Positions 1,310 through 31,493 of a stretch of DNA of 64,000 nucleotides are shown one piece after another. The notes under the pieces were generated by a model. It did not search any database. It had not been told where the DNA came from and worked only from the letters and a program-made list of their open reading frames with translations. How positions within the stretch are numbered: position 1 is the first letter of the stretch; every line of letters begins with the position of its first letter. Source of the stretch: an uncultured Verrucomicrobiota bacterium. GTDB taxonomy: Bacteria > Verrucomicrobiota > Kiritimatiellia > CAIQIC01 > CAZMXS01. The position numbers and the translations under genes were made by a program. The DNA is taken from positions 29,894 to 93,893 of the forward strand of contig CAZMXS010000009.1 of NCBI GenBank assembly GCA_964570325.1. The letters run 5' to 3'.

Positions 1310-2062
1310 ATGGCATCCGATCTGGAAAAGATATTGCGTCCGGTGGACACGCCCGTGCCGCCGTTTCCCCCCAAGTTCATGAAGCTGGCCAGCGGGGAGG
1401 ATATGGTGGTGCGTCAGGTTGACCGCGATGAAATCCCCGACATCCTTCCGTACGTCGAACCGCTGCTGCACGTCGAGCGCGATTACTACGATATCGTCTC
1501 CGCCCGCGTCTATGCCGAGCTGCTGGCCTACTATCGCCACCGCGTGCAGGATGAGTATGTGCTGGTCGCGCAGATTGACGGCGAACTGGCGGCGATTGTC
1601 AACGGTCGTTTCCGCGACAAGGACGTCGGCGTCTCCTTCCATACCCTGGCCCTGCGGCGCGGGTTGCGCGTCGGCGCGCACGCCTTTGCCGCGAAGATGG
1701 AATATCACATGGATATCGTCGGGCAAAAGGAAGTGTTGATCGTCGCCGAATCACCGATCGGGTTCCGGCGCTGGATGATCGAATACCAGCTCGAAAAACG
1801 TTTCGACATTCCACACGAACTCGGCGGCGTGCCGTCCTATGCGCTGACCAAGGCCCTGTTCGACCGCGCGCGCAATACGCTGGTGGTCGGGCGCCGGCCG
1901 GTGCCGAAAGCCTTGCTGGAGAAAGCCCAGGCGGGGATCCGGCCGCCGGCCAACCCGCCCCGGCCGCCGGCGGACCTGCTGGCGGCGGCGCGCGCGCAGA
2001 ACGATTCCACCGGCGCCGCGATTATGCTTCAGCGCTGGAAACAGGAAGGGAAGGTGAAATAA
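1310..2062 (+). CDS. GNAT-like acyl-CoA N-acyltransferase fold protein (function unknown), first gene of a coupled operon
   Basis: AAGGAGA Shine-Dalgarno lies 5 nt upstream of the ATG. The segment LALRRGLRVGAHAF fits the R-x-x-G-x-G/A acyl-CoA binding motif. The stop overlaps the next start (TAATG). Confidence 0.5.
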   Translation: MASDLEKILRPVDTPVPPFPPKFMKLASGEDMVVRQVDRDEIPDILPYVEPLLHVERDYYDIVSARVYAELLAYYRHRVQDEYVLVAQIDGELAAIVNGRFRDKDVGVSFHTLALRRGLRVGAHAFAAKMEYHMDIVGQKEVLIVAESPIGFRRWMIEYQLEKRFDIPHELGGVPSYALTKALFDRARNTLVVGRRPVPKALLEKAQAGIRPPANPPRPPADLLAAARAQNDSTGAAIMLQRWKQEGKVK

Positions 2063-3237
2063 TGCGCGAGGTCTATGCGATTGGCATTGGCATCACGAGT
2101 TTCTCGCGGCTTGAGTATCCGCTCTCGGAAATCGCCGCCTACCCGGCGATGCTGGCTTTGAAGGACTGCGGGTTGTCCAAGGTGGACCACGTTTATGTCG
2201 CCAACATGGGCGCCGGTCGCGTCAATAACCAGACCGCGCTGGCCAGCGCCGTGGTGGATTCGTTGAGCCTGACGCCGGCGGGCGCGGAGACCATCGAGAA
2301 TGGCCCCGCCTCCGGCGCGTCGGCCATCAAGCAGGGATTCATGGCGGTTGCGTCCGGCCTGCATGACGTGGTCTTGGTCACGGGCGCCGAACGGATGCGC
2401 GCGGTGAACAACCTGGAGGCGACGGATTTCGTCGCCACGCTGTCACAGCCGCTGGCGGAATACATCTACGGCGTCACCCTGCCGTCGCTGGCCGCCATGT
2501 TCACGCGGCTCTATATGGAGCAGTACGGCTTGACCGCGCGGCACCTGGCGATGGTCGCGGTCAAGGCGCACGATAACGCGTTGCTTAATCCGTTCGCGCA
2601 TCTGCACCAGAAGATCACCGTCGAGGCCATCCTGGATTCGCCCGAGGCGGAGACCAACAATCCCTATGTGTCCGACCCGCTGCGGTTTTTCGACTGTTGT
2701 CCGGTGTCGGACGGCGGGGCTTGCGTGATCCTCGCGAGCGCGGAGGTCGCCAAGAAAGTCAAGCGCCCGCTGATTCGGCTGGCGGGTGTTGGGCAGGCGA
2801 CCGACACGCATGCCGTGCACGAACGCGAGAACCCGACCGACCTGCTGGCCGTGCGGGCCGCCGCCGCCCAGGCGATGAAGATGGCCGGTATCAAGCCGGC
2901 GGACGTGGACGTGGCCGAACTGCATGACGCATTCACGATCCTCGAGATCGTCGAGAGCGAGGAGGTCGGCTTTTTCAAGAAAGGCGAGGGCCACAAGGCG
3001 CTCGAAAAGGGCGAGACCCGCCTGACCGGCAAAATTCCAATCAACCCGTCCGGTGGGCTCAAGGGCAAGGGGCACCCGGTCGGCGCGACCGGCATCGGCC
3101 AGGCGCACGAGATCATTACGCAACTGCGCGGTGAGGCGAAGCAGCGCCAGGTGAAGAATGCCCGGGTGGGCTTTACCTGCAACTTCGGCGGCTTCGGCAA
3201 CAATGTGGTCTGCCTGACCTTCAAGCGGGAGGATTGA
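2062..3237 (+). CDS. Thiolase-like (SCP-x / archaeal-type) protein, apparently lacking the nucleophilic Cys
   Basis: GHPVGATGIGQ and C-terminal NFGGFG thiolase motifs are present. The expected ACASG active-site loop reads NGPASGAS. Confidence 0.8.
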   Translation: MREVYAIGIGITSFSRLEYPLSEIAAYPAMLALKDCGLSKVDHVYVANMGAGRVNNQTALASAVVDSLSLTPAGAETIENGPASGASAIKQGFMAVASGLHDVVLVTGAERMRAVNNLEATDFVATLSQPLAEYIYGVTLPSLAAMFTRLYMEQYGLTARHLAMVAVKAHDNALLNPFAHLHQKITVEAILDSPEAETNNPYVSDPLRFFDCCPVSDGGACVILASAEVAKKVKRPLIRLAGVGQATDTHAVHERENPTDLLAVRAAAAQAMKMAGIKPADVDVAELHDAFTILEIVESEEVGFFKKGEGHKALEKGETRLTGKIPINPSGGLKGKGHPVGATGIGQAHEIITQLRGEAKQRQVKNARVGFTCNFGGFGNNVVCLTFKRED

Positions 3238-3240
3238 CCC

Positions 3241-3588
3241 ATGACGCTCGAAATCTACGCGTATAAATGCCGGAAATGCGGCCAATTGCATTATCCGTTT
3301 CGGATGGTCTGCAAGCAATGTCATGCGAACGAGCCGCATGCGTTCGATCCCGTGCCGCTGCCGAAAAAGGGGAAGCTGCTGACCTACACGTTCCTGTATA
3401 ATCTGGCGGCGGATTACATGGTGGAGAAACTCGGGCTCGGGATCGTGGAACTGGAGAATGGCCTGCGGATTACCGGCCAGGTCAATATCGCCAATCCGAA
3501 GACCGGCATGGCGGTGGTGGGGCGGGTTGAAGTGGTCCGGCAAAGTGATTCCGGGCGCAATTACGGGATGGTATTTTACAAGGAATGA
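3241..3588 (+). CDS. DUF35 Zn-ribbon/OB-fold protein (thiolase partner)
   Basis: CRKCGQ...CKQCH zinc ribbon followed by an OB-fold-like tail. Lies 3 nt after the thiolase-like gene, the canonical pairing. Confidence 0.8.
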   Translation: MTLEIYAYKCRKCGQLHYPFRMVCKQCHANEPHAFDPVPLPKKGKLLTYTFLYNLAADYMVEKLGLGIVELENGLRITGQVNIANPKTGMAVVGRVEVVRQSDSGRNYGMVFYKE

Positions 3589-4424
3589 CCGGCTTGGTCA
3601 GCGTCGGCGATCGGGTCCGCAACGGGACATACCGGTTGCATTCGCGTTTCCGGCGCGCGGCGAATTTCACCGATGGCCGGTGGCTGGTGACGGTGGCGGA
3701 TGAGACCGTGGGCCCGGGACCGGTGAACCTGGTGGTGCGGGGCGTGGACCTGGCCGGGGTGGATGAAGTGCGGGTCGCGTCCGGATGGGTGCGGATTGGT
3801 ACGCGCCGTTTCCGACGCGGTCGGCGACTGCGATACCGGTCGGACGTGAAAGTGCGATGCCGGGCGCGAACTCGGCTGGATGAACGGTTGCGCGAAATGC
3901 AGGAAGTTTTGATGAAAAGGGCCCATCCGCGCAGTTTGGTGTTTCTACTGCGCGGACGGAGCGTCGCGGCGTTTTCCGCGGGCTTTGAACGGCGCCTGGC
4001 GCGGCGCCTGGCCGCGGGCGCGGCCCGGATGCAAGCCGGCGCGCTGGCGGCGGGCGCGCGGTTACTGGCCGGATGCGGTTGGGGCCGCACGCCGGCCGGC
4101 GACGATTTTCTGGCGGGGTTCATGGCGGGGCTCCAAGCCGCGCACCGCGCGACGGGACGCCGCGTCGCGGCCCGCCTGGCGGCCATTCGCCGAGCCGCGC
4201 CGAGCGGCGATTTATTGGCGCGCACATTTCTGGATCTGGCCTGCGCCGGCTGTTTTCCGGTACGCCTGCAGGCGTTGATTCGGTCCGTGCTGGGCGGGCG
4301 TCCGGCGGAAGTCCGGGCCGGCGCCGTCGGCTTGCTGACCATTGGGGCCACTTCGGGCGCCGACTGGGGGGTTGGTTTTCTGGCCGGTATGCGGCTGTTG
4401 CTGCCGCGGGGAGATGTGCCATGA
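3585..4424 (+). CDS. DUF2877 (YlbF/AllH-like) protein
   Basis: ATGA overlaps on both sides. Arg/Ala-rich 279-aa protein immediately upstream of fdrA, as in ylbF-type loci. Family assignment rests on context plus weak similarity. Confidence 0.55.
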   Translation: MTGLVSVGDRVRNGTYRLHSRFRRAANFTDGRWLVTVADETVGPGPVNLVVRGVDLAGVDEVRVASGWVRIGTRRFRRGRRLRYRSDVKVRCRARTRLDERLREMQEVLMKRAHPRSLVFLLRGRSVAAFSAGFERRLARRLAAGAARMQAGALAAGARLLAGCGWGRTPAGDDFLAGFMAGLQAAHRATGRRVAARLAAIRRAAPSGDLLARTFLDLACAGCFPVRLQALIRSVLGGRPAEVRAGAVGLLTIGATSGADWGVGFLAGMRLLLPRGDVP

Positions 4425-5953
4425 GTATTGTCGGGCGGATCAAAAAAGGCGCGTATTTCGATTCCGTAACCTTGATGCGCGTGGGCCGCGACCTTGGCGC
4501 CCTGCCGGGCGTGGTGGATGCCGCGCTGGTCATGGGCACGAAGGCCAACAAGTCTATTCTACAAGCTTCCGGCCTGTTGTCGCCGGAGCTCGCAAAAGCG
4601 GACGAGACGGACCTGCTGCTGGCGGTTAAGGGCGCGGATGCCGCCAAGGCGCAGGCGGCGCTCAACGCCGCCGAAGCCATGCTGAAGCAGGCCGTACGCA
4701 AGGCCCCTGCCGGCGCCGTGGCGGCCGCGCCGGTCAGTCTGGAGGGCGCGCAGCAACTGCTGCCGGATGCCAACCTGGCGCTCATCTCGGTTGCCGGGCG
4801 CTACGCCGGCCTCGTGGCGGAGGAGGCGTTGGAGCGCGGTCTGCATGTAATGCTGTTCTCGGACAATGTCGCGTTGGAGGACGAAATCCGGCTCAAGCAA
4901 CTGGCGCACCGGAAGGGTCTGCTGGTGATGGGGCCGGATTGCGGCACGGCGATCATCAACGGCGTCCCGTTGGCGTTCGCGAATGTCGTGCCCCGCGGCG
5001 AGATCGGGATCGTCGCCGCCGCGGGCACGGGCCTCCAGGAGGTCAGCACGCTGATTGCCAACCAAGGCGGCGGCATCTCGCAGGCCATCGGCACCGGCGG
5101 CCGCGACGTGAAAAAGGAGGTCGGCGGCATCATGTTCATGGATGCCATCCGGGCGCTGGCCGCCGACCCTGACACCCGTGTCATTCTGCTGGTTTCCAAG
5201 CCGCCGCATCCGGATGTGCAGGCGGCGATCATGCGGTTAATCCGGAAGGCCGGCAAACCGGTGGTGTCGCTGTTTCTCGGCGCGCCGGCCGCGCCGGGCG
5301 AGCCGACGACGTTGGAGGAGGCGGCCCTGACCGCGTTGGCCCGCGCGCGCGGCGAAAACCCGGATAACCTCCGCAAGCGGCTGGCCGAGCGCGAAGTCGA
5401 AATCCGCACCCGCGCGCGCAACGAGGCGGCGCAGATTCGCAAGGGCCGGAAATACCTGCGCGGCCTGTTCAGCGGCGGCACCTTCTGCGCCGAGGCGCAG
5501 GTCATTCTGGAGAAACTGATCAGCGAGGTGTCCTCGAACGCCCCGACCGGCGCGACGCTCAAGCTCAAGGATTCGCTGAAGAGCGTCCGCCACACCGTGA
5601 TTGACCTGGGCGAAGACGAGTTCACCGTCGGCCGGCCGCATCCGATGATTGATTTTTCGCTGCGGAACCGCCGGATTCTGGCGGAGGCGCGCCACCCTGA
5701 AACGGCGGTCATCCTGTTGGATGTCGTGCTGGGTTACGGCGCGCATCCGGATCCCGCCGGCGAGCTGGAGCCGGTTGTCCGCGAGGCGCGCCGGCACCTG
5801 CCGGTGATCTGCTCCATCACGGGGACCGACGCCGATCCGCAGCACCGCCACCGCGTGGAGCAGGTGTTGCGGCAGGCGGGCGCGCTGGTCATGCCCAGCA
5901 ATGCGGCGGCCTGCATGCTGGCGGGGTATATTGTGCGTTTCCTGGGAGAGTAA
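4421..5953 (+). CDS. fdrA: FdrA (AllF-like) CoA-binding / succinyl-CoA-synthetase-alpha-like protein
   Basis: The N-terminus MSIVGRIKKGAYFDSVTLMRVGRDL...VMGTKANK matches E. coli FdrA (IKKGCFQDSVSLM...MMGTPANK). Start taken at the internal ATG of ORF 4073..5953, overlapping the previous stop. Confidence 0.85.
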   Translation: MSIVGRIKKGAYFDSVTLMRVGRDLGALPGVVDAALVMGTKANKSILQASGLLSPELAKADETDLLLAVKGADAAKAQAALNAAEAMLKQAVRKAPAGAVAAAPVSLEGAQQLLPDANLALISVAGRYAGLVAEEALERGLHVMLFSDNVALEDEIRLKQLAHRKGLLVMGPDCGTAIINGVPLAFANVVPRGEIGIVAAAGTGLQEVSTLIANQGGGISQAIGTGGRDVKKEVGGIMFMDAIRALAADPDTRVILLVSKPPHPDVQAAIMRLIRKAGKPVVSLFLGAPAAPGEPTTLEEAALTALARARGENPDNLRKRLAEREVEIRTRARNEAAQIRKGRKYLRGLFSGGTFCAEAQVILEKLISEVSSNAPTGATLKLKDSLKSVRHTVIDLGEDEFTVGRPHPMIDFSLRNRRILAEARHPETAVILLDVVLGYGAHPDPAGELEPVVREARRHLPVICSITGTDADPQHRHRVEQVLRQAGALVMPSNAAACMLAGYIVRFLGE

Positions 5954-5955
5954 GG

Positions 5956-7362
5956 ATGGCCATATCACAATTGTTCAGCCGTGAACTCAAGGTGGTCAAT
6001 ATCGGCTTGACCGCGTTCAAGCAGGCGCTGGACCAGGTGTCGGCCGCATGCGTCCAGGTGGATTGGAAACCCCCGGTGGACGTCGCGCCGGCCCTGCGGC
6101 AGAAGGTTCGCGCGCGGCGGGCGGCGATTGACAAGGCCAATCGGCGGGCGGCGGACCTCATCCAGGCCGGGCGCCCCTGCCTGGTCGGCCTGGCGCGCGC
6201 GCGCGAGGTGATCCCCGGCATGAAGCAAAACATGCTGTTGCACGCCGGGCCGCCGGTGACGTGGGCGCGAATGTGCGGCCCGATGCGCGGGGCGGTCATG
6301 GGCGCCCTCATGTACGAGGGGCGCGCGGCCACGCCGCGGGAGGCCGCCCGCCTGGCGGCGTCCGGCGCCGTGGTGTTCGCCCCCTGCCATGAGCATCGGG
6401 CGGTTGGGCCCATGGCGGGGATCATTTCGCCCTCCATGCCGGTTTTCATCGTGAAGAATGAGGAGTTCGGCAACTGCGCCTACAGCACCCTGAACGAGGG
6501 GCTGGGCAAGGTGCTGCGCTATGGAGCTTACGACGACACGGTGCTCGAACGCCTGCGCTGGATGGCCGACACCCTCTACCCGGCGTTGAAAGAGGCCGTT
6601 GCGCAGGCGGGGCCGGTGGACCTGAAAAATCTGATCGCGCAGGCCCTGCACATGGGCGACGAGGTGCATAACCGCAACCGCGCGGCCACGTCGTTGCTGT
6701 ACCGCGCGCTGGCGCCGGCGGTGGTGCGCACCGCCGGCAACCCCGCGACGGCGGCCGCGGTGCTGGATTTCATCAACCGCAACGACCATTTCTTTCTGAA
6801 CCTCTCGATGGCGGCCGCCAAGGCCACGCTGGACGCGGCGCGCGGGATCAAGGACAGCAGCGTGGTCGTCGTGATGGCGCGCAACGGCACCGAGTTCGGC
6901 ATCCAGCTCTCCGGCACCGACGGCCAATGGTTCACCGGGCCCGCCGAAGTGCCGGATGCGTTGTACTTTCCAGGCTACACCAAGGCCGACGCCAACCCCG
7001 ACATCGGCGACAGCGCGATCACGGAAACCAACGGCCTCGGCGGATTCGCCATCGCGGCCGCGCCGGCCATTGTGCAATTCGTCGGCGGCGCCGCGGAAGA
7101 CGCCGTGCGCTACACGCAGCAGATGTACGCCATCACCGTGGCCGAAAACACGGCCTACCAGATTCCCTATCTTAATTTCCGCGGCACGCCGACCGGCATT
7201 GACGTCATCCGGGTGATCGAACAGAACATCCTGCCTTTTATTGACACCGGCGTGGCCCACAAGGAGCCCGGCGTCGGGCAGATCGGCGCGGGCGTGCTCA
7301 GCGCGCCCCTGGAGCCGTTCCGCAAGGCGTACGAGGCATTCGCGGGAAAACTGAAGCGGTGA
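5956..7362 (+). CDS. DUF1116 (YlbE/AllG-like) protein
   Basis: 468-aa ORF 2 nt after fdrA. Conserved stretch MLLHAGPPVTW...PCHEHRAVGPMAG is typical of DUF1116. Confidence 0.75.
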   Translation: MAISQLFSRELKVVNIGLTAFKQALDQVSAACVQVDWKPPVDVAPALRQKVRARRAAIDKANRRAADLIQAGRPCLVGLARAREVIPGMKQNMLLHAGPPVTWARMCGPMRGAVMGALMYEGRAATPREAARLAASGAVVFAPCHEHRAVGPMAGIISPSMPVFIVKNEEFGNCAYSTLNEGLGKVLRYGAYDDTVLERLRWMADTLYPALKEAVAQAGPVDLKNLIAQALHMGDEVHNRNRAATSLLYRALAPAVVRTAGNPATAAAVLDFINRNDHFFLNLSMAAAKATLDAARGIKDSSVVVVMARNGTEFGIQLSGTDGQWFTGPAEVPDALYFPGYTKADANPDIGDSAITETNGLGGFAIAAAPAIVQFVGGAAEDAVRYTQQMYAITVAENTAYQIPYLNFRGTPTGIDVIRVIEQNILPFIDTGVAHKEPGVGQIGAGVLSAPLEPFRKAYEAFAGKLKR

Positions 7363-7566: not shown

Positions 7567-8385
7567 ATGAATACCAAGCAGTTCCTCGACTTCATGACCC
7601 GGGCGCGGGTTTATGATTTGACCCAGCGTTTGAGCATTCACACCCCGCCGTGGCCCAGTTATATGCCGCTCGGAATCCAGTATTTCAAGCGGATCGCCGG
7701 GGCGCACATCGGGCAGGGCGCCAACGGACAGATCATCACCACCAGCAACCACGTCGGCACCCACATGGACGGCGAAATTCACTTCCATGCCAGTGGGCGC
7801 TCGATTGGCGATGTGCCGCTCGCCGAGTGGATCGGTCCCGGCGCCGTCGCGGATATCTCGAAGGAAGTCGGGGATTACGACCTGTACACGCCGGAAATGA
7901 TCACCCGCAACGTCGAGGTCAAGAAAGGCGACATCCTGATCATCAACACCGGATATCACCGCTATGCCTGGGATCAGCGGGAGTCGGACGAAGTCCGTTA
8001 CTTCGTCAAGCATCCCGGCCCCGCGCCCGGATTCGACGAATGGGCGCTGAAGATGAAAATCAAATGGATTGGCGTGGATTGCGGGAGCGCCGACCACCCG
8101 ATGAATACGATTATCCGCACCTGGCACCCTGCGCGCTTTGCCGAGGCCGAGGCGAAACTCAAGGCGAAATATGGAAAGGGTTGGGACGAGATGTTCCCGC
8201 CTTCGGATTATTACCAGGTTATGCACTTGAAATTGTTCCCGCGAAAACTGGTGCACGCTGAGAATATCGGCGGGGAGATTGAAAAGGTCAGCAATCAGCG
8301 CGCGTGGATCGGCTGTTTTCCGCTGCGCGGCATCGAAATGGAGTCGGCCATGTGCCGGATTGTCGCGATTCTGCCGCCGAAATAA
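7567..8385 (+). CDS. Cyclase-family protein (kynurenine-formamidase-like metal hydrolase)
   Basis: HVGTHMDGEIH motif (HxGTHxD). GGAGGA SD lies 7 nt before the ATG at 7567, inside ORF 7516..8385. Confidence 0.7.
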   Translation: MNTKQFLDFMTRARVYDLTQRLSIHTPPWPSYMPLGIQYFKRIAGAHIGQGANGQIITTSNHVGTHMDGEIHFHASGRSIGDVPLAEWIGPGAVADISKEVGDYDLYTPEMITRNVEVKKGDILIINTGYHRYAWDQRESDEVRYFVKHPGPAPGFDEWALKMKIKWIGVDCGSADHPMNTIIRTWHPARFAEAEAKLKAKYGKGWDEMFPPSDYYQVMHLKLFPRKLVHAENIGGEIEKVSNQRAWIGCFPLRGIEMESAMCRIVAILPPK

Positions 8386-8480
8386 GCGGGCATTGGCGCG
8401 GGGCAACGAGCATGGCGGTCAGCGGTTGGAATTGATGGGCGGCGCCGCGAATGCGGGCGCCGCCGGGCGGGCAGGCGAGC

Positions 8481-9185
8481 ATGCAAACTTCATCACTGAA
8501 GCAGGACGATTTCGGCGAAGGTGGGCACCAGCAACTGCCGCACATCCTGGTGTCGGATTTCGACGGCACGATGACGCGGCATGACTTTTTTGAACTGGTG
8601 CGGCGGGAAATTCCGAGCACGACGACGGAGGATTACTGGCAGGGTTATCTGGACGGCCGGTACACGCACTTCCAGGCCTTGGCGGAGATTTTCGCGCACG
8701 CCCGCGCGGACGAGGCGACCCTGCGCCGGCTGGCGGGTCGCATGGAGCTGGATTCGCAGCTCAACGCGGCCCTCAGCCGTTTGCGTCGGAGCGGTTGGCA
8801 AGTGGTTATCGCCTCGGCCGGCTGCGAGTGGTACATCCGGCAACTGTTGCAGCCGGTGCACGTGCCGGTCATCATCCACGCCAATCCCGGCGCGCCGCAA
8901 CCCGGCGGCGGGCTGGCGATGCGGCTGCCGGACACCTCGCGCTTTTTGAGCATGGAAACCGGCATTGACAAGGAGGCGGTCGTGCGCGAAGCGATCGCGC
9001 ACGGCGCGGTGGTTGCTTTCGCGGGCAACAGCGCGCCGGATCTCACGCCCGCGCTGCTGGTGCCGCCGGACAAGCGTTTTGCGCGCGGCTGGCTGGCCGA
9101 CCATTTTCGCGAGCAGCAAATACCGTTCCGGTCGTTCGCCAATTGGATGCAAATTGCCGACGCCCTCGCGCGCGACGAGGAATAA
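8481..9185 (+). CDS. HAD-IB family phosphatase (MtnX-like)
   Basis: DFDGTMT (DxDxT) motif I and a later IASAG motif. Start at the internal ATG of ORF 8451..9185. Confidence 0.6.
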   Translation: MQTSSLKQDDFGEGGHQQLPHILVSDFDGTMTRHDFFELVRREIPSTTTEDYWQGYLDGRYTHFQALAEIFAHARADEATLRRLAGRMELDSQLNAALSRLRRSGWQVVIASAGCEWYIRQLLQPVHVPVIIHANPGAPQPGGGLAMRLPDTSRFLSMETGIDKEAVVREAIAHGAVVAFAGNSAPDLTPALLVPPDKRFARGWLADHFREQQIPFRSFANWMQIADALARDEE

Positions 9186-9290: not shown

Positions 9291-10997
9291 TCAAACCCGG
9301 AACACCGCCCCGAGCTTCCGACCGAGCAACCGGTGGCTGCCCGCCAGGGCGACGGCCAGGAATAGCATGGCCCACACCCCGAGCGCGCAGGCCAGGTATT
9401 TGCCGGTGCCGATCAACTGGAAGAGTTCATAAATGGTCTTGGTGATCGGGAAGTGGTCCGACTGCTGCGCCAGGATCAGGCTGTCCGAGACTTCCAGCAT
9501 GCTGAATGCGAACGCCAGCAGGCCTCCCGCCACCAGGTTGGCCGCGATCAGGGGGATCGTGATGCGGCGGGCGGTGGTCAGCGGCCCGGCGCCGACATTG
9601 GCCGCGGCCTCTTCGAGCGCGACGGCGGTTTGCTGCAACCCCGCGACCGCGGCGCGGACCACGTAGGGCAGGCGACGAACGGCGTAGGCGACCACCAGGA
9701 AGAGCGTCGGATTGACCCGCACGTCGAACAGTTGCTGGGCGAGCGGGCTGTTCCGCACCCATTCCAGGTTGCTCAAGCGCGAGCTGATGGCGAGGTAGCC
9801 GAAAGCCATAACCAATCCCGGCACGGCCAGCGGCAGCATGGCGACCGCGTCGAGCGCCCCGCGCTGGGGCAGGTCGGAGCGGACCACCACGAATGCGATG
9901 AGCAAGCCCAGGACCAGGCTGAAGCCCGCCGCCAGCGTCGCATATAACAGGCTGTTGCCGATGCCGCTGACGACCATGCCGTGTCCGAGCGCCGCGGCGT
10001 AGTTGGCGGTTGTGAATCGGGTCGGGAGAACGGTCCGATACCAACTGCCCGGCTCGCTGAAACTGGTCAGGATCACCCCGATATGGGGCAGCAACGCGAG
10101 GCCGATGACCACCAGGAAGGGCAGCCGCGCGGCGGCGGCGCGCCAACCCCGCAGGTCCGTCTGACGGGCGGCGACGGTTGCCTTTCCCTGCATCGCCCAC
10201 GCCGCGCGCCCGAAGACCAACTTCGCGGCCGTATACAGCAGGACGCTGGCGGCCAGCATGACGAAGACCAGCGCGTACGGAAAAGGATTGGACCCGACTT
10301 CCTTGAGCGCGTCGAAAACCTGCACCGCGGCGCAGCGGGTGTAGTTCATGATCAGCGGCGTGCCGAGTTCGGTGAAGCTCCAGATGAAAACCAGCGTCCC
10401 GCCGGCGAACAGCCCCGGCATGATCAACGGCAGCGTGATACGGCGGAACTTGCGGAAGCCGTGGCAACCGACGTTTTCAGCGGCCTCCTCCATCGCGGGG
10501 TCAATGTTGGCCAGCGCGGCGACGGCATTGAGATAGATCAGCGGATAAAGCGACAGCGCTTGCAGGCCGACCACGCCCCAATAACGGGCCCGGCCGATCC
10601 AATCCACCGGCCCGAGGCTCAACAAGGCGTTGAGCGCGCCGTACTGGCCGAGGAGCTGCTGCAGACCAATGGCGCCGACGAACGGGGGCAGGATCATCGG
10701 CGCCAGCAGCAGCGCGCCAATCCAGTCCTTGCCGGGGAACCGGTAGCGGTTGGCCAGCCATGCCAGCGGGACGGCGCACAACATCGCCAGCAGGGTCGTG
10801 CCCAGCGCGATCAGCAGGCTGTTGCCCAGGCCCTCGGCGTAAATCGGATTGGCGAAAACTCCCAGCAGATACCGCGGCGTGAAACGGCCGTGCTCGATGA
10901 AGCCGCCGCGGATGATCGTCCCCAGCGGCGCCAGGAACAAGAGGCCGAGCAGGGCCAGTGTGCTCCAGAAAATGATATTGGCGGCGCCGCGTTTCAT
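9291..10997 (-). CDS. ABC transporter permease, fused two-domain (FbpB/iron(III)-type architecture)
   Basis: 568 aa with about 12 predicted TM segments and two BPD-transporter-like halves. Adjacent to a substrate-binding protein and an ATPase. Confidence 0.8.
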   Translation of the reverse strand: MKRGAANIIFWSTLALLGLLFLAPLGTIIRGGFIEHGRFTPRYLLGVFANPIYAEGLGNSLLIALGTTLLAMLCAVPLAWLANRYRFPGKDWIGALLLAPMILPPFVGAIGLQQLLGQYGALNALLSLGPVDWIGRARYWGVVGLQALSLYPLIYLNAVAALANIDPAMEEAAENVGCHGFRKFRRITLPLIMPGLFAGGTLVFIWSFTELGTPLIMNYTRCAAVQVFDALKEVGSNPFPYALVFVMLAASVLLYTAAKLVFGRAAWAMQGKATVAARQTDLRGWRAAAARLPFLVVIGLALLPHIGVILTSFSEPGSWYRTVLPTRFTTANYAAALGHGMVVSGIGNSLLYATLAAGFSLVLGLLIAFVVVRSDLPQRGALDAVAMLPLAVPGLVMAFGYLAISSRLSNLEWVRNSPLAQQLFDVRVNPTLFLVVAYAVRRLPYVVRAAVAGLQQTAVALEEAAANVGAGPLTTARRITIPLIAANLVAGGLLAFAFSMLEVSDSLILAQQSDHFPITKTIYELFQLIGTGKYLACALGVWAMLFLAVALAGSHRLLGRKLGAVFRV

Positions 10998-11020
10998 GTT
11001 CCAATGCGCAGGGATATTCC

Positions 11021-12754
11021 CTATGGCCTGACTTGGTTAAGCGCCTCCCGGTAGCTGTGCCTGAAAAAGTCGGTCCAGGCGCGCATATATTCCATGCGGT
11101 CCATTTCTTTGCCGATGGCCAGGGCGGAAGTCCAGGTCAGTGGTTCCGGTCGGTCCGGCAGGCGCTCCAGTTGCGCCAGCGCGGCGGGCTGCCGGGCCGG
11201 GCCGCCGCCGGCCAGGATCGCCGCCCAGGCCGCGCGCAACTCCGCGCCCGAATCCAGGCACATAGTCCGGATCAGGTCGCGCAGGATGTTGAAATGCGAT
11301 CCGGTCCAGCGCGGCTGGTAGGTGAAGTGGCGCGCCTGTTCATAGGGATTGACGTCGGCGGCGCCCAGATCGTCCGCGCAGTGGCGGCGGTGTTTTTCAA
11401 AAGCGGCCTGGGTGGTGGGGTCGGTTGCGGGATAGAAGTCGCGCCGGATGGGCAGGCGGCGCAGGGCAAAGCGTTCCGGGCCGCCGGGTTCGCCCGGCCG
11501 ATAACACCACAACTGTTGACCCGCCTCGCTGAGGATGAATTCAATAAACCGCACGGCGGTTTCCCGGTGCGGGGCGCCGCGCAGCAGGCCGATCGGGTCG
11601 CAACTGACGCTGGATCCGCCCGCGGGTGTGAGATAGACCATCCGCTCGCCGCCATCCGGGGCGCGGGCGCACTGGGCCTGGTAGCGGGCATAGAAATCAA
11701 TCACCAACCCCGCGGCCGCGTCGCCCTGGCTGACATCAATCGGCACCTTGCTGGCCGAATCCGTGAAGTAGCGTGCGTTGGCGCCGATTCGCTGGATGAG
11801 CCTCAGCCCGTCCAGCCAGCCGCGCGCGACCGCCGCCTGGTAAGCCGCGGGCACTTCGGGCGGCATCTCGCCCGGTGGCCGGCCGGCGGCGGCGATGGCG
11901 CGTTCATAGCGCTGGATGGTTTCCTCATCATAACCGGCGGCGGTCACGGCCTGCCGGCATTTCTGCTGGATGATCATTTCGAACGCCTTGGCGATACTGC
12001 CGCTCTTGGTCGGGTCGGCCGCTCCGACCTGCCGGAAATAGGCGGGATCGGCCAGGTCGTCCCAGGCCGCCGGCGGCCGCGCCACGCCCAGATCGTCCAG
12101 CCGGTCCCGGTTGTAGCAGATGCCAAATGACGCGAGCACGCAGCCAAACATGGTGGGCGTCCGCCACTTTTCGCCGCTCATGCCGGCCGGGATCAGCACG
12201 CGGCCGTCCGCCGTTTGAAAAAGGCCCGCCGGCGCGTCATCCGGCGGCCAGGGCGGGACGGTCAGGCCTTGTTGGAACAGCAGCGTGTGGTCGTATTCGC
12301 CGCCGCCGAAAAACAGGTCCAGCCCGCTGGTGAACGCGCGCGGATCGTCGGTCCGGCGAAAGGCATCGTAAAGCGCGGTCAGTTCCGGCGAACTTTGGTC
12401 GCGCGCGAACTTGCGCGCCGTCACGGCGTCGTTGGCGCCGGCCGGCCAGGGCCGGCCTTGCCGCCGCCACCAGGCGCGCGCGGCGTTGATGAACTCGGCG
12501 GTGATATAGCGGCTGATCTCCGTTGTGCCGCCGAGGGCGCGCCAGTCCACTTTCGCGGGACGGCCGAACTGCTGCTGGTGCCAGGCGGCAAACGCCCGGC
12601 CGAACTCGTAGCGGATGGCCTCGTTCATCGGCGTGATGATGACCACAACCGGATCGCCCGCGCGCCAGGCGCCGGCCTCCGGCGGCCGGCGGAAAAGGAA
12701 CGGCAGCGCGATTACCAGCGCGGCGGCGATCAGGCTGGGGAGGTGGCGCGACAT
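11021..12754 (-). CDS. ABC transporter periplasmic substrate-binding protein (large, family-1-like)
   Basis: N-terminal TM/signal segment, 577 aa, located between the permease and the ATPase. Substrate cannot be determined. Confidence 0.65.
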   Translation of the reverse strand: MSRHLPSLIAAALVIALPFLFRRPPEAGAWRAGDPVVVIITPMNEAIRYEFGRAFAAWHQQQFGRPAKVDWRALGGTTEISRYITAEFINAARAWWRRQGRPWPAGANDAVTARKFARDQSSPELTALYDAFRRTDDPRAFTSGLDLFFGGGEYDHTLLFQQGLTVPPWPPDDAPAGLFQTADGRVLIPAGMSGEKWRTPTMFGCVLASFGICYNRDRLDDLGVARPPAAWDDLADPAYFRQVGAADPTKSGSIAKAFEMIIQQKCRQAVTAAGYDEETIQRYERAIAAAGRPPGEMPPEVPAAYQAAVARGWLDGLRLIQRIGANARYFTDSASKVPIDVSQGDAAAGLVIDFYARYQAQCARAPDGGERMVYLTPAGGSSVSCDPIGLLRGAPHRETAVRFIEFILSEAGQQLWCYRPGEPGGPERFALRRLPIRRDFYPATDPTTQAAFEKHRRHCADDLGAADVNPYEQARHFTYQPRWTGSHFNILRDLIRTMCLDSGAELRAAWAAILAGGGPARQPAALAQLERLPDRPEPLTWTSALAIGKEMDRMEYMRAWTDFFRHSYREALNQVRP

Positions 12755-12822
12755 GGATCAATGGCGGACCCGATGGGACAAGGAACGCACGCCGGCGTCT
12801 GTTGATGATTTTCCCATTTGAT

Positions 12823-13917
12823 TCAACCGCCGCCCAGGGTGACAATATCCTCCGGCGCGATCCAGACGCGGGTCGGTTCCCGGTGCGCGTCGCGCGCGAC
12901 CACGCGCGGGTTTAGTTCAAAAAGTTTGAGCGTGGTGACGGTTCCGGCCGGGCCGGCCAGATCAACCTGGTGCTCGGCGAGTTCACCTTGGTAGACCGTG
13001 TCGTGCAGGATGGCGTCGAACCGGTTCGGCGCGCCGGGGGGCGGTTGGCCGATGCGAATGTACTCCGGTCGGATCGCGAGGGTCACCGCGCCCGCCGCGG
13101 GAAGGTCGCGGGCGTTTTCCGCCGCGGCGCGCAACGGACCGAATGGTGTTTCGATCTCCAACGCGTCGTCGGTGCGCGCGCGGAGCTGACCCGCGACGAA
13201 ATTGGCCTCGCCAATAAAATGGGCGACGAAGCGGTTGGCGGGCCGGCGATAGACCTCCTGCGGCCGGCCCAACTGCTCGATGCGGCCGTTTCGCAGCACG
13301 CTCAACCGGTCGGCCATGCAGAGCGCTTCCTGCTGGTCGTGCGTGACGTACACGGTGGTCAACCCGGCCTGTTTGCACAGGCTCCGGATTTCGGCGCGCA
13401 TTTCCATGCGCAGCCGGGCGTCCAGGTTGGAGAGTGGCTCGTCGAGCAGCAGGCAACGCGGCCGAATCGCGAGCGCGCGGGCGAGCGCGACCCGTTGCTG
13501 CTGGCCGCCGGAGAGCTGGTTGGGCCGGTGGTCGGCGCGATCGGCCATCCGGACCAAATCCAAGGCCGCGTCGGCGCGCGCGCGGATTTCCTTCCGCGGC
13601 AGACGGCGCAGTTCCAGGCCGAACGCGACATTTTCACGGACGGTCATGTGCGGCCAGAGCGCATAGCTTTGGAACACCATTCCGGTGTCGCGCCGGTACG
13701 CCGGCCGGCGCGTTATGTCCTCCCCGCCGATGCGGATCGCGCCGCGATCCGGCTCGCAGAACCCGGCGATGCACCGCAGGAGCGTGGTCTTGCCGCAGCC
13801 GCTGGGTCCCAGCAGGAAAAAGAGTTCGCCCGGCTCAATGGCCAGCGTGATGTCATCCACGGCGCGGGTCGCGCCGAAAAACTTGCTGACTCCTTCGATC
13901 TGGAGGGATACCGCCAT
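12823..13917 (-). CDS. ABC transporter ATP-binding protein (PotA/FbpC-like with C-terminal TOBE-like domain)
   Basis: Walker A GPSGCGKTT, signature LSGGQQQRVALARAL, Walker B LLLDEP. ATG at 13917 preferred over the TTG at 13977. Confidence 0.9.
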   Translation of the reverse strand: MAVSLQIEGVSKFFGATRAVDDITLAIEPGELFFLLGPSGCGKTTLLRCIAGFCEPDRGAIRIGGEDITRRPAYRRDTGMVFQSYALWPHMTVRENVAFGLELRRLPRKEIRARADAALDLVRMADRADHRPNQLSGGQQQRVALARALAIRPRCLLLDEPLSNLDARLRMEMRAEIRSLCKQAGLTTVYVTHDQQEALCMADRLSVLRNGRIEQLGRPQEVYRRPANRFVAHFIGEANFVAGQLRARTDDALEIETPFGPLRAAAENARDLPAAGAVTLAIRPEYIRIGQPPPGAPNRFDAILHDTVYQGELAEHQVDLAGPAGTVTTLKLFELNPRVVARDAHREPTRVWIAPEDIVTLGGG

Positions 13918-14056
13918 GCGCGGGATTGTTCCTGTCGCGCGCCGGGGGGTCAATGCCGAAAACGTACCATTCGACAATCCAACCCGGGCTGTGTATTCTG
14001 ACCGTTACCCACGGCGCGTTTGCAGGTTTGACCCAGCCGGGGAGAGGAAGCACACG

Positions 14057-18330: not shown

Positions 18331-20622
18331 ATGAAAGATGAGGTCAGCGAACCGCTGGTTGGCCGCGGGATCATCCGTCTGGATGGCGTGGACAAGGTGC
18401 GCGGTCGGGCGCAGTACACCGACGACCTCGAGATTCCCGGTTGCTGGCACGGCGCGTTGGTCCGCGCGCCGGTGGCGCACGGGCGCTTGCGGGGCCTGCA
18501 TTTCGACCCCGGATTTGACTGGTCGCGCGTGGTGGTCGCCACGCCGGCCGACATCCCCGGGCCGAACATCGTGGTCATGCACGACCGCTCCATGCCCCTG
18601 CTGGCGTTCGACGAAATTCTCTACCTGGGCGAGCCGCTGGCCGTCGTGGCGGCGCCGACCGCGCGGCTGGCGCGCGAGGCGGCCGCGCACATCCGGGCGG
18701 ATGTCGCGGAGCTGCCGGCCATCCTCCATCTACGCGAATTAAGCGACCGCTACAAGGCCGGCGACCTGGCGTGGACGCGGCTGGCGGAAAAACAGATCGT
18801 CAAGGGTGATGTGGCGCAGGGGCTGGCGGCGGCCGATTTCGTCGTCGAAGATGAACACACGGCCGGCCACCAGGAGCAGCTCTACATCGAGCCGCAGGGC
18901 ATGGTGGCGATCCCGCAGGATGACGGCGGTCTGTTCCTTCAGGGCAGCCTGCAATGCCCGTATTATGTGCAGCACGAATTGCACGAGGCGTTGAATTTGC
19001 CTTGCGAGAAAATCCGCGTGAAGCAGGCCGCTGTCGGCGGCGCCTTCGGGGGCAAGGAGGATTATCCAACGATGTTGGGCGGCTACTGCGCGCTCGCGGC
19101 GCTCAAAGCGCGCCGGCCGGTCAAGATCGTGTACGACCGCCACGAGGACATCGGCTTCACGCCCAAGCGCCACCCCGTCTGGGTCCGGCATCGCGGCGGC
19201 GTGAAAAAGGACGGCACCATCACGGCGTTGCAGGTGGATTTCATGCTGGATGGCGGCGCCTACCTGACGTTGAGCGATGTGGTCATGTTTCGCGGCATCC
19301 TGCATGCCGCGCTGGGTTACCGTTGCGAGCATGTCCGGGTCAACGGCATGGTGGCCCGCACGCACACCGTCCCGTCCGGCGCGTTCCGCGGGTTCGGCGC
19401 GCCCCAGGCCATCTGGGGGCTCGAGACGCATATTGACCGCCTGGCCCGGGCCTGCGGCCGGGATCCGCACACTTTTCGGCTGCAGAACTGTCTGCGCCTG
19501 GGCGATACGACGCCGACGGGCCAGGTGTTGCGCGACAGCGTCGGCTCGCCGGCCGTGATCGAAACCGCGTTGCGGCGCGCGGGGTTTGAGGAGAAACTGC
19601 GGCGCTGCTCGCGCGGCCGGCCCGATGCGCGGACCTGGTATGGCATTGGCCTGTCGTTCTTTGCTCACGGCGCGGCCTTCACCGGCGATGGCGAGGTGAA
19701 GATCAATGCCCGCGTGGCCCTGGAACTGGATCGGCTGGAGGACGGCCGGCCCGGCGTGATTGCGCGCGTGAGTTCAACCGAGATGGGGCAGGGCGCCCAT
19801 ACGGTGCTGGCGCAAATGACCGCGGACGGACTCGGCCTCGGTTTGGACCGCGTGCGTTGTCCGTTGCCGGACACCGCGCTGGCGCCGGACAGCGGGCCAA
19901 CGGTTGCCTCGCGCACGACAATGGTCGTGGGAAGCTCATTGTATGGTGCCGCCGCCAAACTGAAGCGGGCGCTGGAAGCAGAGGCCGGCCGGCCGGTCAC
20001 GAAGGATTCTTTTGAGGACATCGCGGCCGCGTATCTGGCGCGGCACAGCCGGCTGCGCATCGAAAATCAGTTCAAACTGCCGGACGACATTCGCTGGGAT
20101 CAACAGCAATTCCGGGGCGATGCCTATCCCGGCTACTCGTGGGGCTGCAACATCGCCGAGGTCGAGATTGATCCGCGCACCTTGGTGGCGCGCGTGGCGA
20201 AAATCACGGCCTGCTATGATATCGGCCGCGTGGTCAATCCGTTGCTCGCCAAAGGACAAATCGAGGGCGGCCTGGTGCAAGCTCTGGGATATGCGGTCAT
20301 GGAGCAAATCGGCATCCGCAACGGAAAATACGACGCCGACCGGCTGCAGACGTATATTATTCCGACGACGCTTGATATCCCGGCCATGGATATCGTGTTC
20401 GTGGAATTTCCCTACGCGCATGCCGCGCCGGGCGCGAAAGGCGTGGGCGAAATCCCGATGGACGGATTGGCGCCGGCCATCGCCAATGCGGTTGAACAGG
20501 CCCTCGGCATCCGGATGCGTGACCTGCCGATCACGCCGGAAAAACTGCTGGCCGCCATCCGCGTTGAAAAACCGGACTTGGCGCGCGCGCTGGGGTTGGA
20601 GGTGGGAATGAGGGGGCCGTAA
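18331..20622 (+). CDS. Xanthine dehydrogenase/aldehyde oxidase family molybdopterin-binding subunit
   Basis: 763 aa. N-terminal a/b-hammerhead region (RLDGVDKVRGRAQYTDD). Followed by 2Fe-2S and FAD subunits. Confidence 0.9.
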   Translation: MKDEVSEPLVGRGIIRLDGVDKVRGRAQYTDDLEIPGCWHGALVRAPVAHGRLRGLHFDPGFDWSRVVVATPADIPGPNIVVMHDRSMPLLAFDEILYLGEPLAVVAAPTARLAREAAAHIRADVAELPAILHLRELSDRYKAGDLAWTRLAEKQIVKGDVAQGLAAADFVVEDEHTAGHQEQLYIEPQGMVAIPQDDGGLFLQGSLQCPYYVQHELHEALNLPCEKIRVKQAAVGGAFGGKEDYPTMLGGYCALAALKARRPVKIVYDRHEDIGFTPKRHPVWVRHRGGVKKDGTITALQVDFMLDGGAYLTLSDVVMFRGILHAALGYRCEHVRVNGMVARTHTVPSGAFRGFGAPQAIWGLETHIDRLARACGRDPHTFRLQNCLRLGDTTPTGQVLRDSVGSPAVIETALRRAGFEEKLRRCSRGRPDARTWYGIGLSFFAHGAAFTGDGEVKINARVALELDRLEDGRPGVIARVSSTEMGQGAHTVLAQMTADGLGLGLDRVRCPLPDTALAPDSGPTVASRTTMVVGSSLYGAAAKLKRALEAEAGRPVTKDSFEDIAAAYLARHSRLRIENQFKLPDDIRWDQQQFRGDAYPGYSWGCNIAEVEIDPRTLVARVAKITACYDIGRVVNPLLAKGQIEGGLVQALGYAVMEQIGIRNGKYDADRLQTYIIPTTLDIPAMDIVFVEFPYAHAAPGAKGVGEIPMDGLAPAIANAVEQALGIRMRDLPITPEKLLAAIRVEKPDLARALGLEVGMRGP

Positions 20623-20667
20623 TCGGTTGGCCGGAGAAGGCGGTTGGGAAACGGTGAATAGCAGGTC

Positions 20668-21177
20668 ATGATGAAAACCGTTAAGCGAAATTGGAAGGTC
20701 AATGGCGAAGTGCGCGCGGTGGAGACGCCACCCATGCGGCGCTTGCTGGATGTGCTGCGGGTGGACCTCGGCCTGAAGGGCACCAAAGAGGGTTGCGGCG
20801 AGGGCGAATGCGGCGCTTGTACGGTGTTGCTCGACGGCGCGCCGGTGGTGGCCTGCCTGGTGGCCGCCGGCCAGGTGACGGACGGCGCGGAACTGATGAC
20901 CGTCGAGGGGCTGGAAAAAACCGAATTAGGCCGGACGCTCCAGCGGGCGTACCTGGAGAAGGGGGCGGCCCAGTGCGGGTTCTGTATCCCCGGCATGCTG
21001 ATGTCCTCGTACGCGCTGCTGGCGCGTGAGCCCGATCCGGACGAACGGCGGATCCGGGAGGCGCATGCGGGCAATCTCTGCCGGTGCACCGGATACGAGA
21101 AAATTGTCGAGGCGGTTCGCTGGGCGGCGGACCAAATGAAGAATTCGAGGTTGAGTGTTCAAGGTTCAAAGGCCTGA
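20668..21177 (+). CDS. (2Fe-2S)-binding subunit of the XDH-family enzyme
   Basis: GCGEGECGACTV, CGFCIPGM and CRCTGY cluster motifs. Confidence 0.9.
   Translation: MMKTVKRNWKVNGEVRAVETPPMRRLLDVLRVDLGLKGTKEGCGEGECGACTVLLDGAPVVACLVAAGQVTDGAELMTVEGLEKTELGRTLQRAYLEKGAAQCGFCIPGMLMSSYALLAREPDPDERRIREAHAGNLCRCTGYEKIVEAVRWAADQMKNSRLSVQGSKA
21151..21171. repeat. Heptamer array inside the 3' end of the 2Fe-2S gene
   Basis: TTGAGTG TTCAAGG TTCAAAG. Encodes the tail ...SRLSVQGSKA. Confidence 0.55.
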
Positions 21178-22045: not shown

Positions 22046-22265
22046 TCAATCGGCGCGGCTGACCGAAGGGGCTCAATTCTTTCCTGTTGTTTTGAACCCG
22101 CTCGCGGGCAACGGCCGATTGCAGAATCTCTGACGCGCTGGGCAGGCGCGAAACGAAATCCCGCCGCATCCGCGGAGGCGGACCGGGATGCAGGATGATC
22201 AGGGTCTCTTTCCATATCGGTTCGGGTGGACGGCTTGGCAACCCAATGGCCGCGCGGGGCGCTGA

Positions 22266-22862: not shown

Positions 22863-22914
22863 TGCTTCATACTCGTACTCCTCCTGACGCGCGTACTCGA
22901 TCTAAAATTTTTTC

Positions 22915-22940
22915 ATATCAATTGTATATAAAGTTGATAT
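22915..22940. promoter_or_regulatory. AT-rich inverted repeat in a divergent promoter region
   Basis: ATATCAA-12 nt-TTGATAT between mocA-like (-) and the ABC substrate-binding gene (+), in the only AT-rich patch of this region. Confidence 0.3.
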
Positions 22941-23005
22941 TATTTGGTGCATTCCCCCATCGGGGGTGATAGGCTAAACAACCAAGCACGATGAAAGGAG
23001 CCAAC

Positions 23006-24022: not shown

Positions 24023-24102
24023 AGCGTGGTCCGGGTCGGGCGCGCGGGCTGGGCGCGTCGCCCAAGCCCGGACGGCCCGGCGGCTGGGTAATGGCTGGGC
24101 CG

Positions 24103-31475: not shown

Positions 31476-31493
31476 AATTTCGTCATCTACGTA

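Follow-up and report, generated by a model that had tools for sequence, protein, structure and literature searches.

A 64,000-nucleotide stretch of contig CAZMXS010000009.1, from an uncultured bacterium of the Kiritimatiellia (Verrucomicrobiota) and hereafter called the window, carries an operon that is one copy of a widespread, near-unchanged gene module present in hundreds of uncultured, mostly anaerobic bacteria. The operon consists of six translationally coupled genes, A to F (1310-7362), with a cyclase-family gene, G (7567-8385), as the seventh. All lie on the forward strand and encode, in order, a 250-aa GNAT-fold protein (A, 1310-2062), a thiolase-fold protein of the archaeal/SCP2 thiolase type (B, 2062-3237), a DUF35 protein combining a zinc ribbon with an OB fold (C, 3241-3588), the subunits AllH/DUF2877 (D, 3585-4424), AllF/FdrA, which is SucD-like (E, 4421-5953), and AllG/DUF1116 (F, 5956-7362), and a kynurenine-formamidase-like, metal-dependent amidohydrolase (G). 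Our evidence leans, if modestly, towards a catabolic module for a pyrimidine-type ring in which AllH, AllF and AllG (AllHFG) would act on the ring-opened ureide; the specific route from uracil through barbiturate to ureidomalonate is held with somewhat less confidence, and any stated role of A, B and C with low confidence. The kind of pathway is known, and what appears to be new here is the module itself, the family of A, for which no profile model exists, and the cysteine-less thiolase-fold subfamily to which B belongs.

A recurrent gene module and its proteins

The open reading frames (ORFs) of the operon were found where the initial annotation, made from the sequence alone, had placed them. 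Their junctions, read from the sequence, are a TAATG overlap (A/B), a 3-nt gap (B/C), ATGA overlaps (C/D and D/E) and a 2-nt gap (E/F), and G starts at an ATG at 7567 behind its own GGAGGA ribosome-binding site, 204 nt after F. That annotation had drawn attention to an FdrA-DUF1116-DUF2877 trio coupled with both a thiolase-like/DUF35 pair and a GNAT-like protein, and this linkage proved to be real and strongly conserved. A scan of one genome per species placed A in at least 534 species, and 80 of these species genomes, all of them metagenome-assembled genomes (MAGs), were examined. The carriers of A span more than 10 phyla, and those examined belong to the Verrucomicrobiota, Kiritimatiellae, Lentisphaerae, Ignavibacteria, Zixibacteria, KSB1, Eisenbacteria, Acidobacteriota, Acidimicrobiia, Bacteroidota, Gemmatimonadota, Elusimicrobiota, Riflebacteria, Myxococcales and others, and the host samples (peat, sediments, groundwater and digesters) are mostly anoxic.

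Downstream of A, B and C are present in all 73 loci that were eligible by having enough sequence, AllF in 48 of 60, AllG in 44 of 55, the cyclase in 39 of 52, and XdhM, the FAD subunit of a xanthine dehydrogenase (XDH)-family enzyme, in 36 of 49. The common order is A-B-C-AllH-AllF-AllG-cyclase-XdhM-XdhS-XdhL, and nothing is conserved on either side beyond these ten module genes. Metagenome contigs from a second, cyclase-centred scan agree with this and strengthen the observation; more than 100 independent loci share the arrangement, which is no one-off juxtaposition. Certain Verrucomicrobiia carry the module split into A-B-C-AllH and AllF-AllG-cyclase-XdhMSL, so that D travels with A-B-C, and in three loci (L149, L156 and L170, in our numbering) the order is reshuffled with the same parts kept together. 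The median identity to the window proteins is 83% for the cyclase, 80% for B, 76% for A, 71% for AllG, 63% for C and 60% for AllF, with AllH lowest at 35%. Because AllH is so diverged in the same loci, the high identity of A, B and the cyclase points to strong constraint and not to recent transfer.

Variants of the module were also seen. Locus L170 (365-16826) holds a rearranged copy in which A is present as two paralogs and a tandem double cyclase of 545 aa accompanies the normal one; A is separated from the XDH genes by an LplA-like and a DUF5714 protein. Of two loci with distant A homologs, L164 combines XDH, A and AllF/G/H with a Bmp-type nucleoside ABC transporter and has no thiolase, and L167 combines A, a thiolase-like protein, a DUF35 protein and the cyclase.

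Profile searches with Pfam and NCBIfam support the DUF2877, DUF1116, FdrA, thiolase-like and DUF35 assignments that had been read from the sequence. D matches PF11392 (7e-20; 72.2 bits against a cutoff of 25), E the FdrA model NF004760 (502.6 bits, cutoff 433) and F PF06545 (1.8e-101; 338.6 bits, cutoff 27), while the structures 3dmy and 3clq are matched by E (8.9e-89) and F (1.9e-129), respectively. The window AllF and AllG are each about 50% identical to the enterobacterial proteins (about 49% for F and AllG/YahG). E contains CoA_binding and CoA-ligase domains, its alignment to SucD ends ahead of the phosphohistidine loop, and its orthologs conserve a VGRPHPMID motif in common with Escherichia coli FdrA. 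The purified E. coli AllFGH reversibly converts oxalurate and phosphate to carbamoyl phosphate and oxamate, as a transcarbamylase without coenzyme A (CoA), and allFGHK adjoins allECD in that organism (Kim & Kim 2024, PMC11326118); in Enterococcus faecalis, AllFGH stands with PucR, carbamate kinase and ureidoglycolate dehydrogenase.

The module thus resembles the E. coli system in possessing all three subunits, each above its curated hidden Markov model cutoff, and potentially in the chemistry of the trio, which we propose by analogy to be phosphorolysis of an N-acylurea to carbamoyl phosphate. It differs in its gene order (H-F-G), in having neither the carbamate kinase nor the allantoin genes of the E. 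coli context, and in the coupling of the trio to GNAT-fold, cysteine-less thiolase-fold, DUF35, cyclase and XDH-family proteins; its proposed substrate is ureidomalonate, where the E. coli enzyme uses oxalurate. AllF and AllG are fused in one ORF in an Acidimicrobiia MAG (L080, 14194-17076) and in E. faecalis (L175, 12423-15434; 1003 aa). In a Verrucomicrobiae MAG (L022, 11601-13634) one ORF covers both DUF35 and AllH, perhaps through a genuine C-D fusion, perhaps through a frameshift error; other apparent A-B and C-D fusions were mostly 5' over-extensions by the ORF caller. Plasmid pTC1 of Paenarthrobacter aurescens (L181, 11983-14779) retains a truncated remnant of AllG with 62% identity to the C-terminus of the window AllG; insertion sequence elements flank this remnant, and atzC and atzB of the atrazine pathway adjoin it.

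For protein A, no Pfam, NCBIfam or Protein Data Bank (PDB) sequence match was found, including in a family-profile search against PDB sequences. A single-sequence AlphaFold2 model was unusable (predicted local distance difference test, pLDDT, 36), and an alignment-based run with 41 homologs was used in its place (pLDDT 87). Among the PDB matches listed for this model by Foldseek, almost all are annotated as GNAT-family acetyl- or acyltransferases (probability 1.00), with TM scores of 0.5-0.64 depending on the target. As modelled, A is a GNAT-fold protein of a family without any Pfam or NCBIfam model; since it is the model that matches and sequence matches are absent, the GNAT call of the initial annotation holds at the level of the fold only. 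The orthologs of A share conserved motifs, and its CoA loop reads R-G-L-R-V-G, one glycine short of the GNAT consensus Q/R-x-x-G-x-G/A. Homologs of A fall into more than 3000 clusters, every one unnamed ("hypothetical"), and the best 120 of these clusters are 75-87% identical to A despite their differing phyla. The A family itself amounts to only 177 clusters, mostly fragments, against 1.8 billion representatives at 50% identity, and to judge from these comparisons it is narrow and unusually constrained. A tblastn search of A against 72,556 plasmid records gave no match.

Protein B matches the profiles of the thiolase N- and C-terminal domains (PF00108, 8e-20, and PF22691, 4e-45, respectively) and scores 410 bits against NCBIfam PRK06064, just below the cutoff of 420. 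Its closest structures are archaeal-type acetoacetyl-CoA thiolases, 7yvy (8.9e-82) and 6esq (5e-72), the latter being the thiolase of a thiolase/HMG-CoA synthase (HMGCS)/DUF35 complex. In alignment with them, the nucleophilic cysteine (EAACASG in 7yvy and 6esq) is replaced by proline in B (ENGPASG), as in 81 of 81 orthologs, and the acid/base cysteine in the HDCF motif of 6esq is replaced by alanine (HDAF), with the LHDAF motif present in 113 of 113 orthologs. The histidine of GHP(V/T)GATG is retained. The retro-aldolases Ltp2 and Sal carry a YDHF/YDCY catalytic motif (PMC12329534); B has neither form and reads HDAF at that place. On its sequence, B cannot be a classical thiolase and is a conserved, cysteine-less thiolase-fold protein of an undescribed subfamily, which may either catalyse another reaction or serve as a scaffold. 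The initial annotation had argued from thiolase-like/DUF35 pairs to chemistry at C-C bonds, and this argument fails because B has neither the two catalytic cysteines nor the aldolase motif.

Protein C scores above the cutoff for zf-ChsH2 (PF12172) and weakly for OB_ChsH2_C (PF01796), and the four cysteines of its CxxC...CxxC zinc ribbon are conserved in the orthologs. DUF35 proteins are the usual scaffold partners of thiolase-fold proteins. As in the archaeal thiolase/HMGCS/DUF35 complex (6esq), PhlACB, BbsAB and Ltp2-ChsH2, B is paired with a small DUF35 protein, and as in the tripartite thiolase complexes a third protein is encoded beside the pair. Unlike its counterparts in these complexes, however, B is without their catalytic residues (proline for cysteine; HDAF for HDCF, YDHF or YDCY), and the third partner is a GNAT-fold protein where the known tripartite complexes have HMGCS or a protein resembling ketoacyl synthase (KAS) III.

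Pyrimidine genes in the loci of relatives

The reading of the module as a pyrimidine-type pathway is carried by the genes that accompany it in relatives, since the window by itself offers no hint of the substrate. G matches the cyclase family clearly (PF04199, 3.6e-32; 112 bits against a cutoff of 23.1), its metal site HxGTHxDxxxH is intact, and HVGTHMDGEIHF is found in 119 of 127 orthologs. In three loci from Actinomycetota/Acidimicrobiia (L055, L079 and L080) the cyclase is missing and the same operon holds a ring-opening amidohydrolase of the AtzD/TrzD family (PF09663, 1e-145); no locus has both enzymes. The best PDB match of the L055 enzyme is barbiturase 5hwe (534 bits, E 1.5e-159), with cyanuric acid hydrolases at about 310 bits, and L055 presents a single array of barbiturase-AllH-AllF-AllG-XdhM-S-L-A-B-C-NCS2 permease. 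This non-orthologous displacement between cyclase and barbiturase argues that the cyclase's job is to open a barbiturate ring.

Further NCS2 permeases flank the module in L118, L157 and L163. Next to the module, L108, L124, L149 and L156/L158 have dihydropyrimidinase (TIGR02033, 532-651 bits against a cutoff of 393) and PreA (552-649 bits against a cutoff of 335); L149 also has a PreT-like subunit, and in L156 the dihydropyrimidinase gene overlaps the start of AllH. In the cultured haloarchaeon Halostagnicola larsenii, a cyclase 48% identical to G has as neighbours the S, L and M subunits of an XDH-family enzyme, XdhC, a MocA-like transferase, an amidohydrolase, cytosine deaminase, the cytosine permease codB and an NCS2 permease, which makes this organism a tractable one for the action of the cyclase and XDH pair on pyrimidines; the cluster, on the megaplasmid of strain XH-48 (L183, 2655-18700), also includes an IclR gene. 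In Haloarcula halophila the cyclase is accompanied by an amidohydrolase and by two NCS2 permeases.

The trio itself recurs beside another ring opener. An enterobacterial plasmid operon reads ring-opening amidohydrolase (of the cyanuric acid hydrolase type)-NCS2 permease-DUF2877-FdrA-DUF1116-carbamate kinase-LysR regulator. An example is plasmid pZ96-1_4 of Leclercia adecarboxylata (L182, 661-10740), which also encodes a transporter-like protein; the spacing of 5252 nt between ring opener and DUF1116 is identical in at least four more records and was seen on Citrobacter and Klebsiella (K. aerogenes and K. oxytoca) plasmids. Like this operon, the module links an opener of a trioxo ring and, in relatives, a nucleobase permease to the trio in the order H-F-G; unlike the module, the plasmid operon has a carbamate kinase and an opener of the cyanuric acid hydrolase type, and lacks XDH, the cyclase, A, B and C. 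AllH-AllF-AllG repeatedly follows directly on an enzyme that opens a trioxo six-membered ring to a linear ureide. The operon of ring opener, AllHFG and carbamate kinase on the plasmids suggests that AllHFG most likely keeps its ureide-cleaving chemistry, applied to a homolog of oxalurate, and is not an acyl-CoA synthetase. Together with the pyrimidine genes of the relatives, it speaks against the earlier proposal that the FdrA complex activates or cleaves an acyl substrate.

In the cultured actinomycete Nonomuraea gerenzanensis (L174, 1093-13374), XDH M-S-L, two xanthine/uracil permeases, PucR and AllH-AllF-AllG lie together; a barbiturase-like gene 72% identical to that of L055 is found about 40 kb away, and A, B, C and the cyclase are absent. 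Two loci (L157, 15164-18734; L163, 1487-5091) are without XdhMSL and have a molybdenum enzyme of the DMSO reductase family with a 4Fe-4S subunit beside permease-AllF-AllG-cyclase; this enzyme is possibly an alternative hydroxylase. Right after XdhL, in convergent orientation, nine loci of the Verrucomicrobia type, about five of them independent, have an amidase-signature amidase and a membrane protein of 146 aa (L088, L090, L095, L114, L120, L122 and L124; for example L090, 14719-16775). This amidase is a candidate malonamate or ureidomalonate hydrolase; it is not orthologous to an amidase that lies beside a malonyl-CoA decarboxylase.

Proposed route and rival readings

Bacterial pyrimidine catabolism has three known routes, the reductive, the Rut and the oxidative route, the last being known from a few aerobic actinomycetes. 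In the route proposed for the module, which would be a self-contained, oxygen-independent form of the oxidative one, uracil or thymine would be taken up, an NCS2 permease being present in the operon of several relatives, and the XDH-family molybdenum hydroxylase would convert it to barbiturate with an oxygen atom from water, so that the hydroxylation would need no O2. G would then open the barbiturate ring to ureidomalonate (3-oxo-3-ureidopropanoate), these two steps being suggested by gene context and by the non-orthologous displacement. Ureidomalonate, H2N-CO-NH-CO-CH2-COO-, is oxalurate with one additional CH2. By homology, AllHFG would cleave it to carbamoyl phosphate and malonamate, in place of the hydrolytic ureidomalonase of actinomycetes; in a less likely variant, the malonyl group would pass to CoA and urea would be released.

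For the C3 remainder we can offer a conjecture, namely that an A-B-C complex would convert it to an acetyl unit, probably via a CoA thioester and decarboxylation. The conjecture draws on the constant presence of the three proteins, their place in the same L055 array, their CoA-related folds and the need for the remainder to be converted. GNAT-fold malonyl-CoA decarboxylases and cysteine-less, ketosynthase-like decarboxylases are precedents for malonyl decarboxylation by both folds. A bolder idea, which we regard as doubtful, is that A-B-C and AllHFG form one multi-enzyme machine turning ureidomalonate into carbamoyl phosphate (or urea), acetyl-CoA and CO2.

The proposed logic of molybdenum hydroxylase, barbiturate ring opening and ureidomalonate cleavage is analogous to that of the oxidative pathway of aerobic actinomycetes, given as uracil dehydrogenase, barbiturase and ureidomalonase in the work of Soong et al. 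as cited in PMC4051656. The Actinomycetota versions of the module have a barbiturase ortholog (5hwe-like) and XdhMSL. In most phyla, by contrast, a cyclase-family ring opener stands where the pathway has barbiturase, and the module has AllHFG in place of ureidomalonase together with the extra proteins A, B and C. The hosts differ as well: those of the known pathway are aerobic actinomycetes, whereas those of the module come mostly from anoxic samples (digesters, sediments and peat).

Several observations weigh against the proposed route. Every host in the loci examined is a MAG, and module-type XdhMSL is missing from the window, whose sole XDH-family enzyme (18331-22045) lies 11 kb from the operon and is about 30% identical to the XdhM-S-L of relatives; conceivably it substitutes for the absent module enzyme. 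The best solved relative of the module XdhL is the alpha subunit of 4-hydroxybenzoyl-CoA reductase (8e-97, next match 3e-72), which leaves room for a CoA-ester substrate. Carbamate kinase is linked to the module in no locus, in contrast to every characterised AllFGH context, and for this reason carbamoyl phosphate as a product is uncorroborated. Carbamoyl phosphate is usable by housekeeping enzymes. Dihydropyrimidinase and PreA belong to the reductive and not to the oxidative pathway, and these neighbours may mean that AllHFG also, or rather, phosphorolyses 3-ureidopropionate. Comparison of A with the catalytic domain of malonyl-CoA decarboxylase gave a null result (hhalign probability 0.6%). 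A canonical malonyl-CoA decarboxylase in L157, the one locus to have this enzyme, was considered as a displacement of A-B-C and set aside: its closest homologs occur in the same URO-D/EamA/malonyl-CoA decarboxylase context without the module, so the adjacency is weak and probably reflects an insertion beside a resident gene.

The rival nearest to the initial annotation, whose interpretation overall is partly supported, is a CoA-dependent, non-ureide pathway in which the SucD-like FdrA complex would activate or cleave an acyl substrate and the thiolase-like/DUF35 pair would cleave a C-C bond. The substrate might be, for example, a hydroxy-aromatic or heteroaromatic acid held as a CoA ester, with the molybdenum enzyme, resembling 4-hydroxybenzoyl-CoA reductase, acting on the thioester. 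The affinity of XdhL with that reductase suits this view, as do the CoA_binding/CoA-ligase domains in AllF, the acyl-CoA binding typical of GNAT, thiolase-fold and DUF35 proteins, and the want of a linked carbamate kinase. We nevertheless consider it unlikely, as B lacks both catalytic cysteines and the aldolase tyrosine motif, E. coli AllFGH is a CoA-free transcarbamylase, the AllF-SucD alignment stops short of the phosphohistidine loop, and the genes that surround the module in relatives (for barbiturase, dihydropyrimidinase, PreA, nucleobase permeases and cytosine deaminase) are not those of aromatic-CoA metabolism.

A reductive variant would have AllHFG replace beta-ureidopropionase, splitting the N-carbamoyl-beta-alanine made by PreTA and dihydropyrimidinase into carbamoyl phosphate and beta-alanine, which A-B-C and other genes would process. 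This appears quite improbable: reductive genes occur in only about five of about 160 loci, and the universally linked XDH and ring opener (cyclase or barbiturase) would be left without a role. Where these genes do occur their linkage is close, with dihydropyrimidinase translationally coupled to AllH in L156/L158, PreT/PreA directly upstream of AllH in L149, and no beta-ureidopropionase seen in these loci; they are maybe an added branch and not the core function.

Two further readings have very little probability. In one, the trio would be an ordinary oxamate transcarbamylase that cleaves oxalurate from purine or allantoin breakdown, with its neighbours as passengers. AllF indeed exceeds the FdrA cutoff of NCBIfam and AllG and AllH their Pfam cutoffs, and the Nonomuraea AllHFG is accompanied by PucR, xanthine/uracil permeases and XDH; yet AllB/C/D/E and carbamate kinase were found neither among the window ORFs scanned nor in any module locus, and the neighbours cannot well be passengers since the linkage with A, B, C, G and XDH persists across phyla and rearrangements. 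The substrate is probably not oxalurate, and the canonical carbamate kinase/allantoin context is missing. The remark of the initial annotation that no carbamate kinase or ureide genes lie nearby stands for the window, where none of the ORFs scanned is a carbamate kinase or allantoin gene, but does not capture the relatives, in which the module lies among pyrimidine genes.

In the other, highly improbable reading, an s-triazine or another trioxo ring (cyanuric acid or 5-azauracil) would be degraded and AllHFG would phosphorolyse carboxybiuret, biuret or allophanate. The displacing enzyme is of the AtzD/TrzD family and above the NCBIfam cutoff for cyanuric acid amidohydrolase, an enzyme of the cyanuric acid hydrolase type is linked to AllHFG and carbamate kinase on the enterobacterial plasmids, and allFGHK adjoins biuret/triuret genes in nitrifier MAGs (PMC12625717). 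Against this, the similarity of the L055 enzyme to barbiturase far exceeds that to any of the cyanuric acid hydrolases, a molybdenum hydroxylase and thiolase-fold or CoA-type proteins would be superfluous for a ring lacking C-C bonds, and the PreA, dihydropyrimidinase and cytosine deaminase contexts indicate pyrimidines. Phloroglucinol, aromatic-CoA and purine/allantoin readings were dropped, since no locus has the genes diagnostic of them.

Setting in the window and significance of the module

The operon is preceded on the forward strand by an intergenic region (1007-1309) in which a TATAAT-like box stands at about 1272-1277 and the ATG at 1310 closely follows an AAGGAG ribosome-binding site; a weak sigma-70-like site lies at 1202-1230, and no riboswitch or other Rfam family was found upstream of the operon in the window and seven relatives. 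Behind G, after 66 nt, follows gene H (8451-9185, forward strand), assigned by profile searches as a HAD-IB (MtnX-like) phosphatase. Gene H is present in the window's own contigs and was undetected in all 83 relatives' loci tested, so that its membership of the module is doubtful. The DNA sequencing runs that contain the sequence are anaerobic-digester metagenomes, and no RNA-seq runs contain it. An ABC transporter lies directly downstream of the operon on the reverse strand (9291-13977) and consists of a permease with two domains, a solute-binding protein of 577 aa and a TOBE-domain ATPase.

The XDH-family enzyme of the window is encoded on the forward strand by genes for the large subunit (18331-20622), the 2Fe-2S subunit (20668-21177) and the FAD subunit (21155-22045). 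In this L-S-M order the genes open a second molybdenum-hydroxylase locus (18331-25701), sequence-unrelated to the module XDH, which continues with a divergent gene for a MobA/MocA-like cytidylyltransferase and with the binding protein, ATPase and permease of an NMT1/THI5-type ABC transporter. Farther on, third-position GC falls to 0.56-0.73 at 30747-36974, against about 0.8 in the rest of the window; this region, perhaps acquired DNA, encodes two paralogous AAA_14/DUF4143 ATPases besides small ORFs. Large tetratricopeptide repeat (TPR) proteins are encoded at 39115-48251, two of them fused to a sulfatase, one a PMT_2 (glycosyltransferase-like)-TPR protein and one with TPRs only.

No paper was found on FdrA together with DUF35 or a thiolase, on the module or on the enterobacterial plasmid operon, and the combination has no description that we could find in the literature that could be searched. 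The module would define two protein families without an assigned function, the GNAT-fold A, about 76% identical across phyla, and the cysteine-less thiolase-fold B, and its enzyme assignments are directly testable. If the multi-enzyme machine were real, it would complete an oxygen-independent, ATP-yielding route of pyrimidine fermentation, A would be a new GNAT-fold enzyme family, and B would have lost its cysteines in favour of a new reaction, for instance amide-to-thioester transfer or decarboxylation. If the proposed pyrimidine route is true, the oxidative route would be shared by a wide variety of uncultured bacteria living in anoxic habitats; AllFGH, a newly discovered enzyme class, would gain a second physiological substrate and a cyclase-family hydrolase a role, with a bearing on the recycling of nucleic-acid nitrogen and carbon in such habitats.

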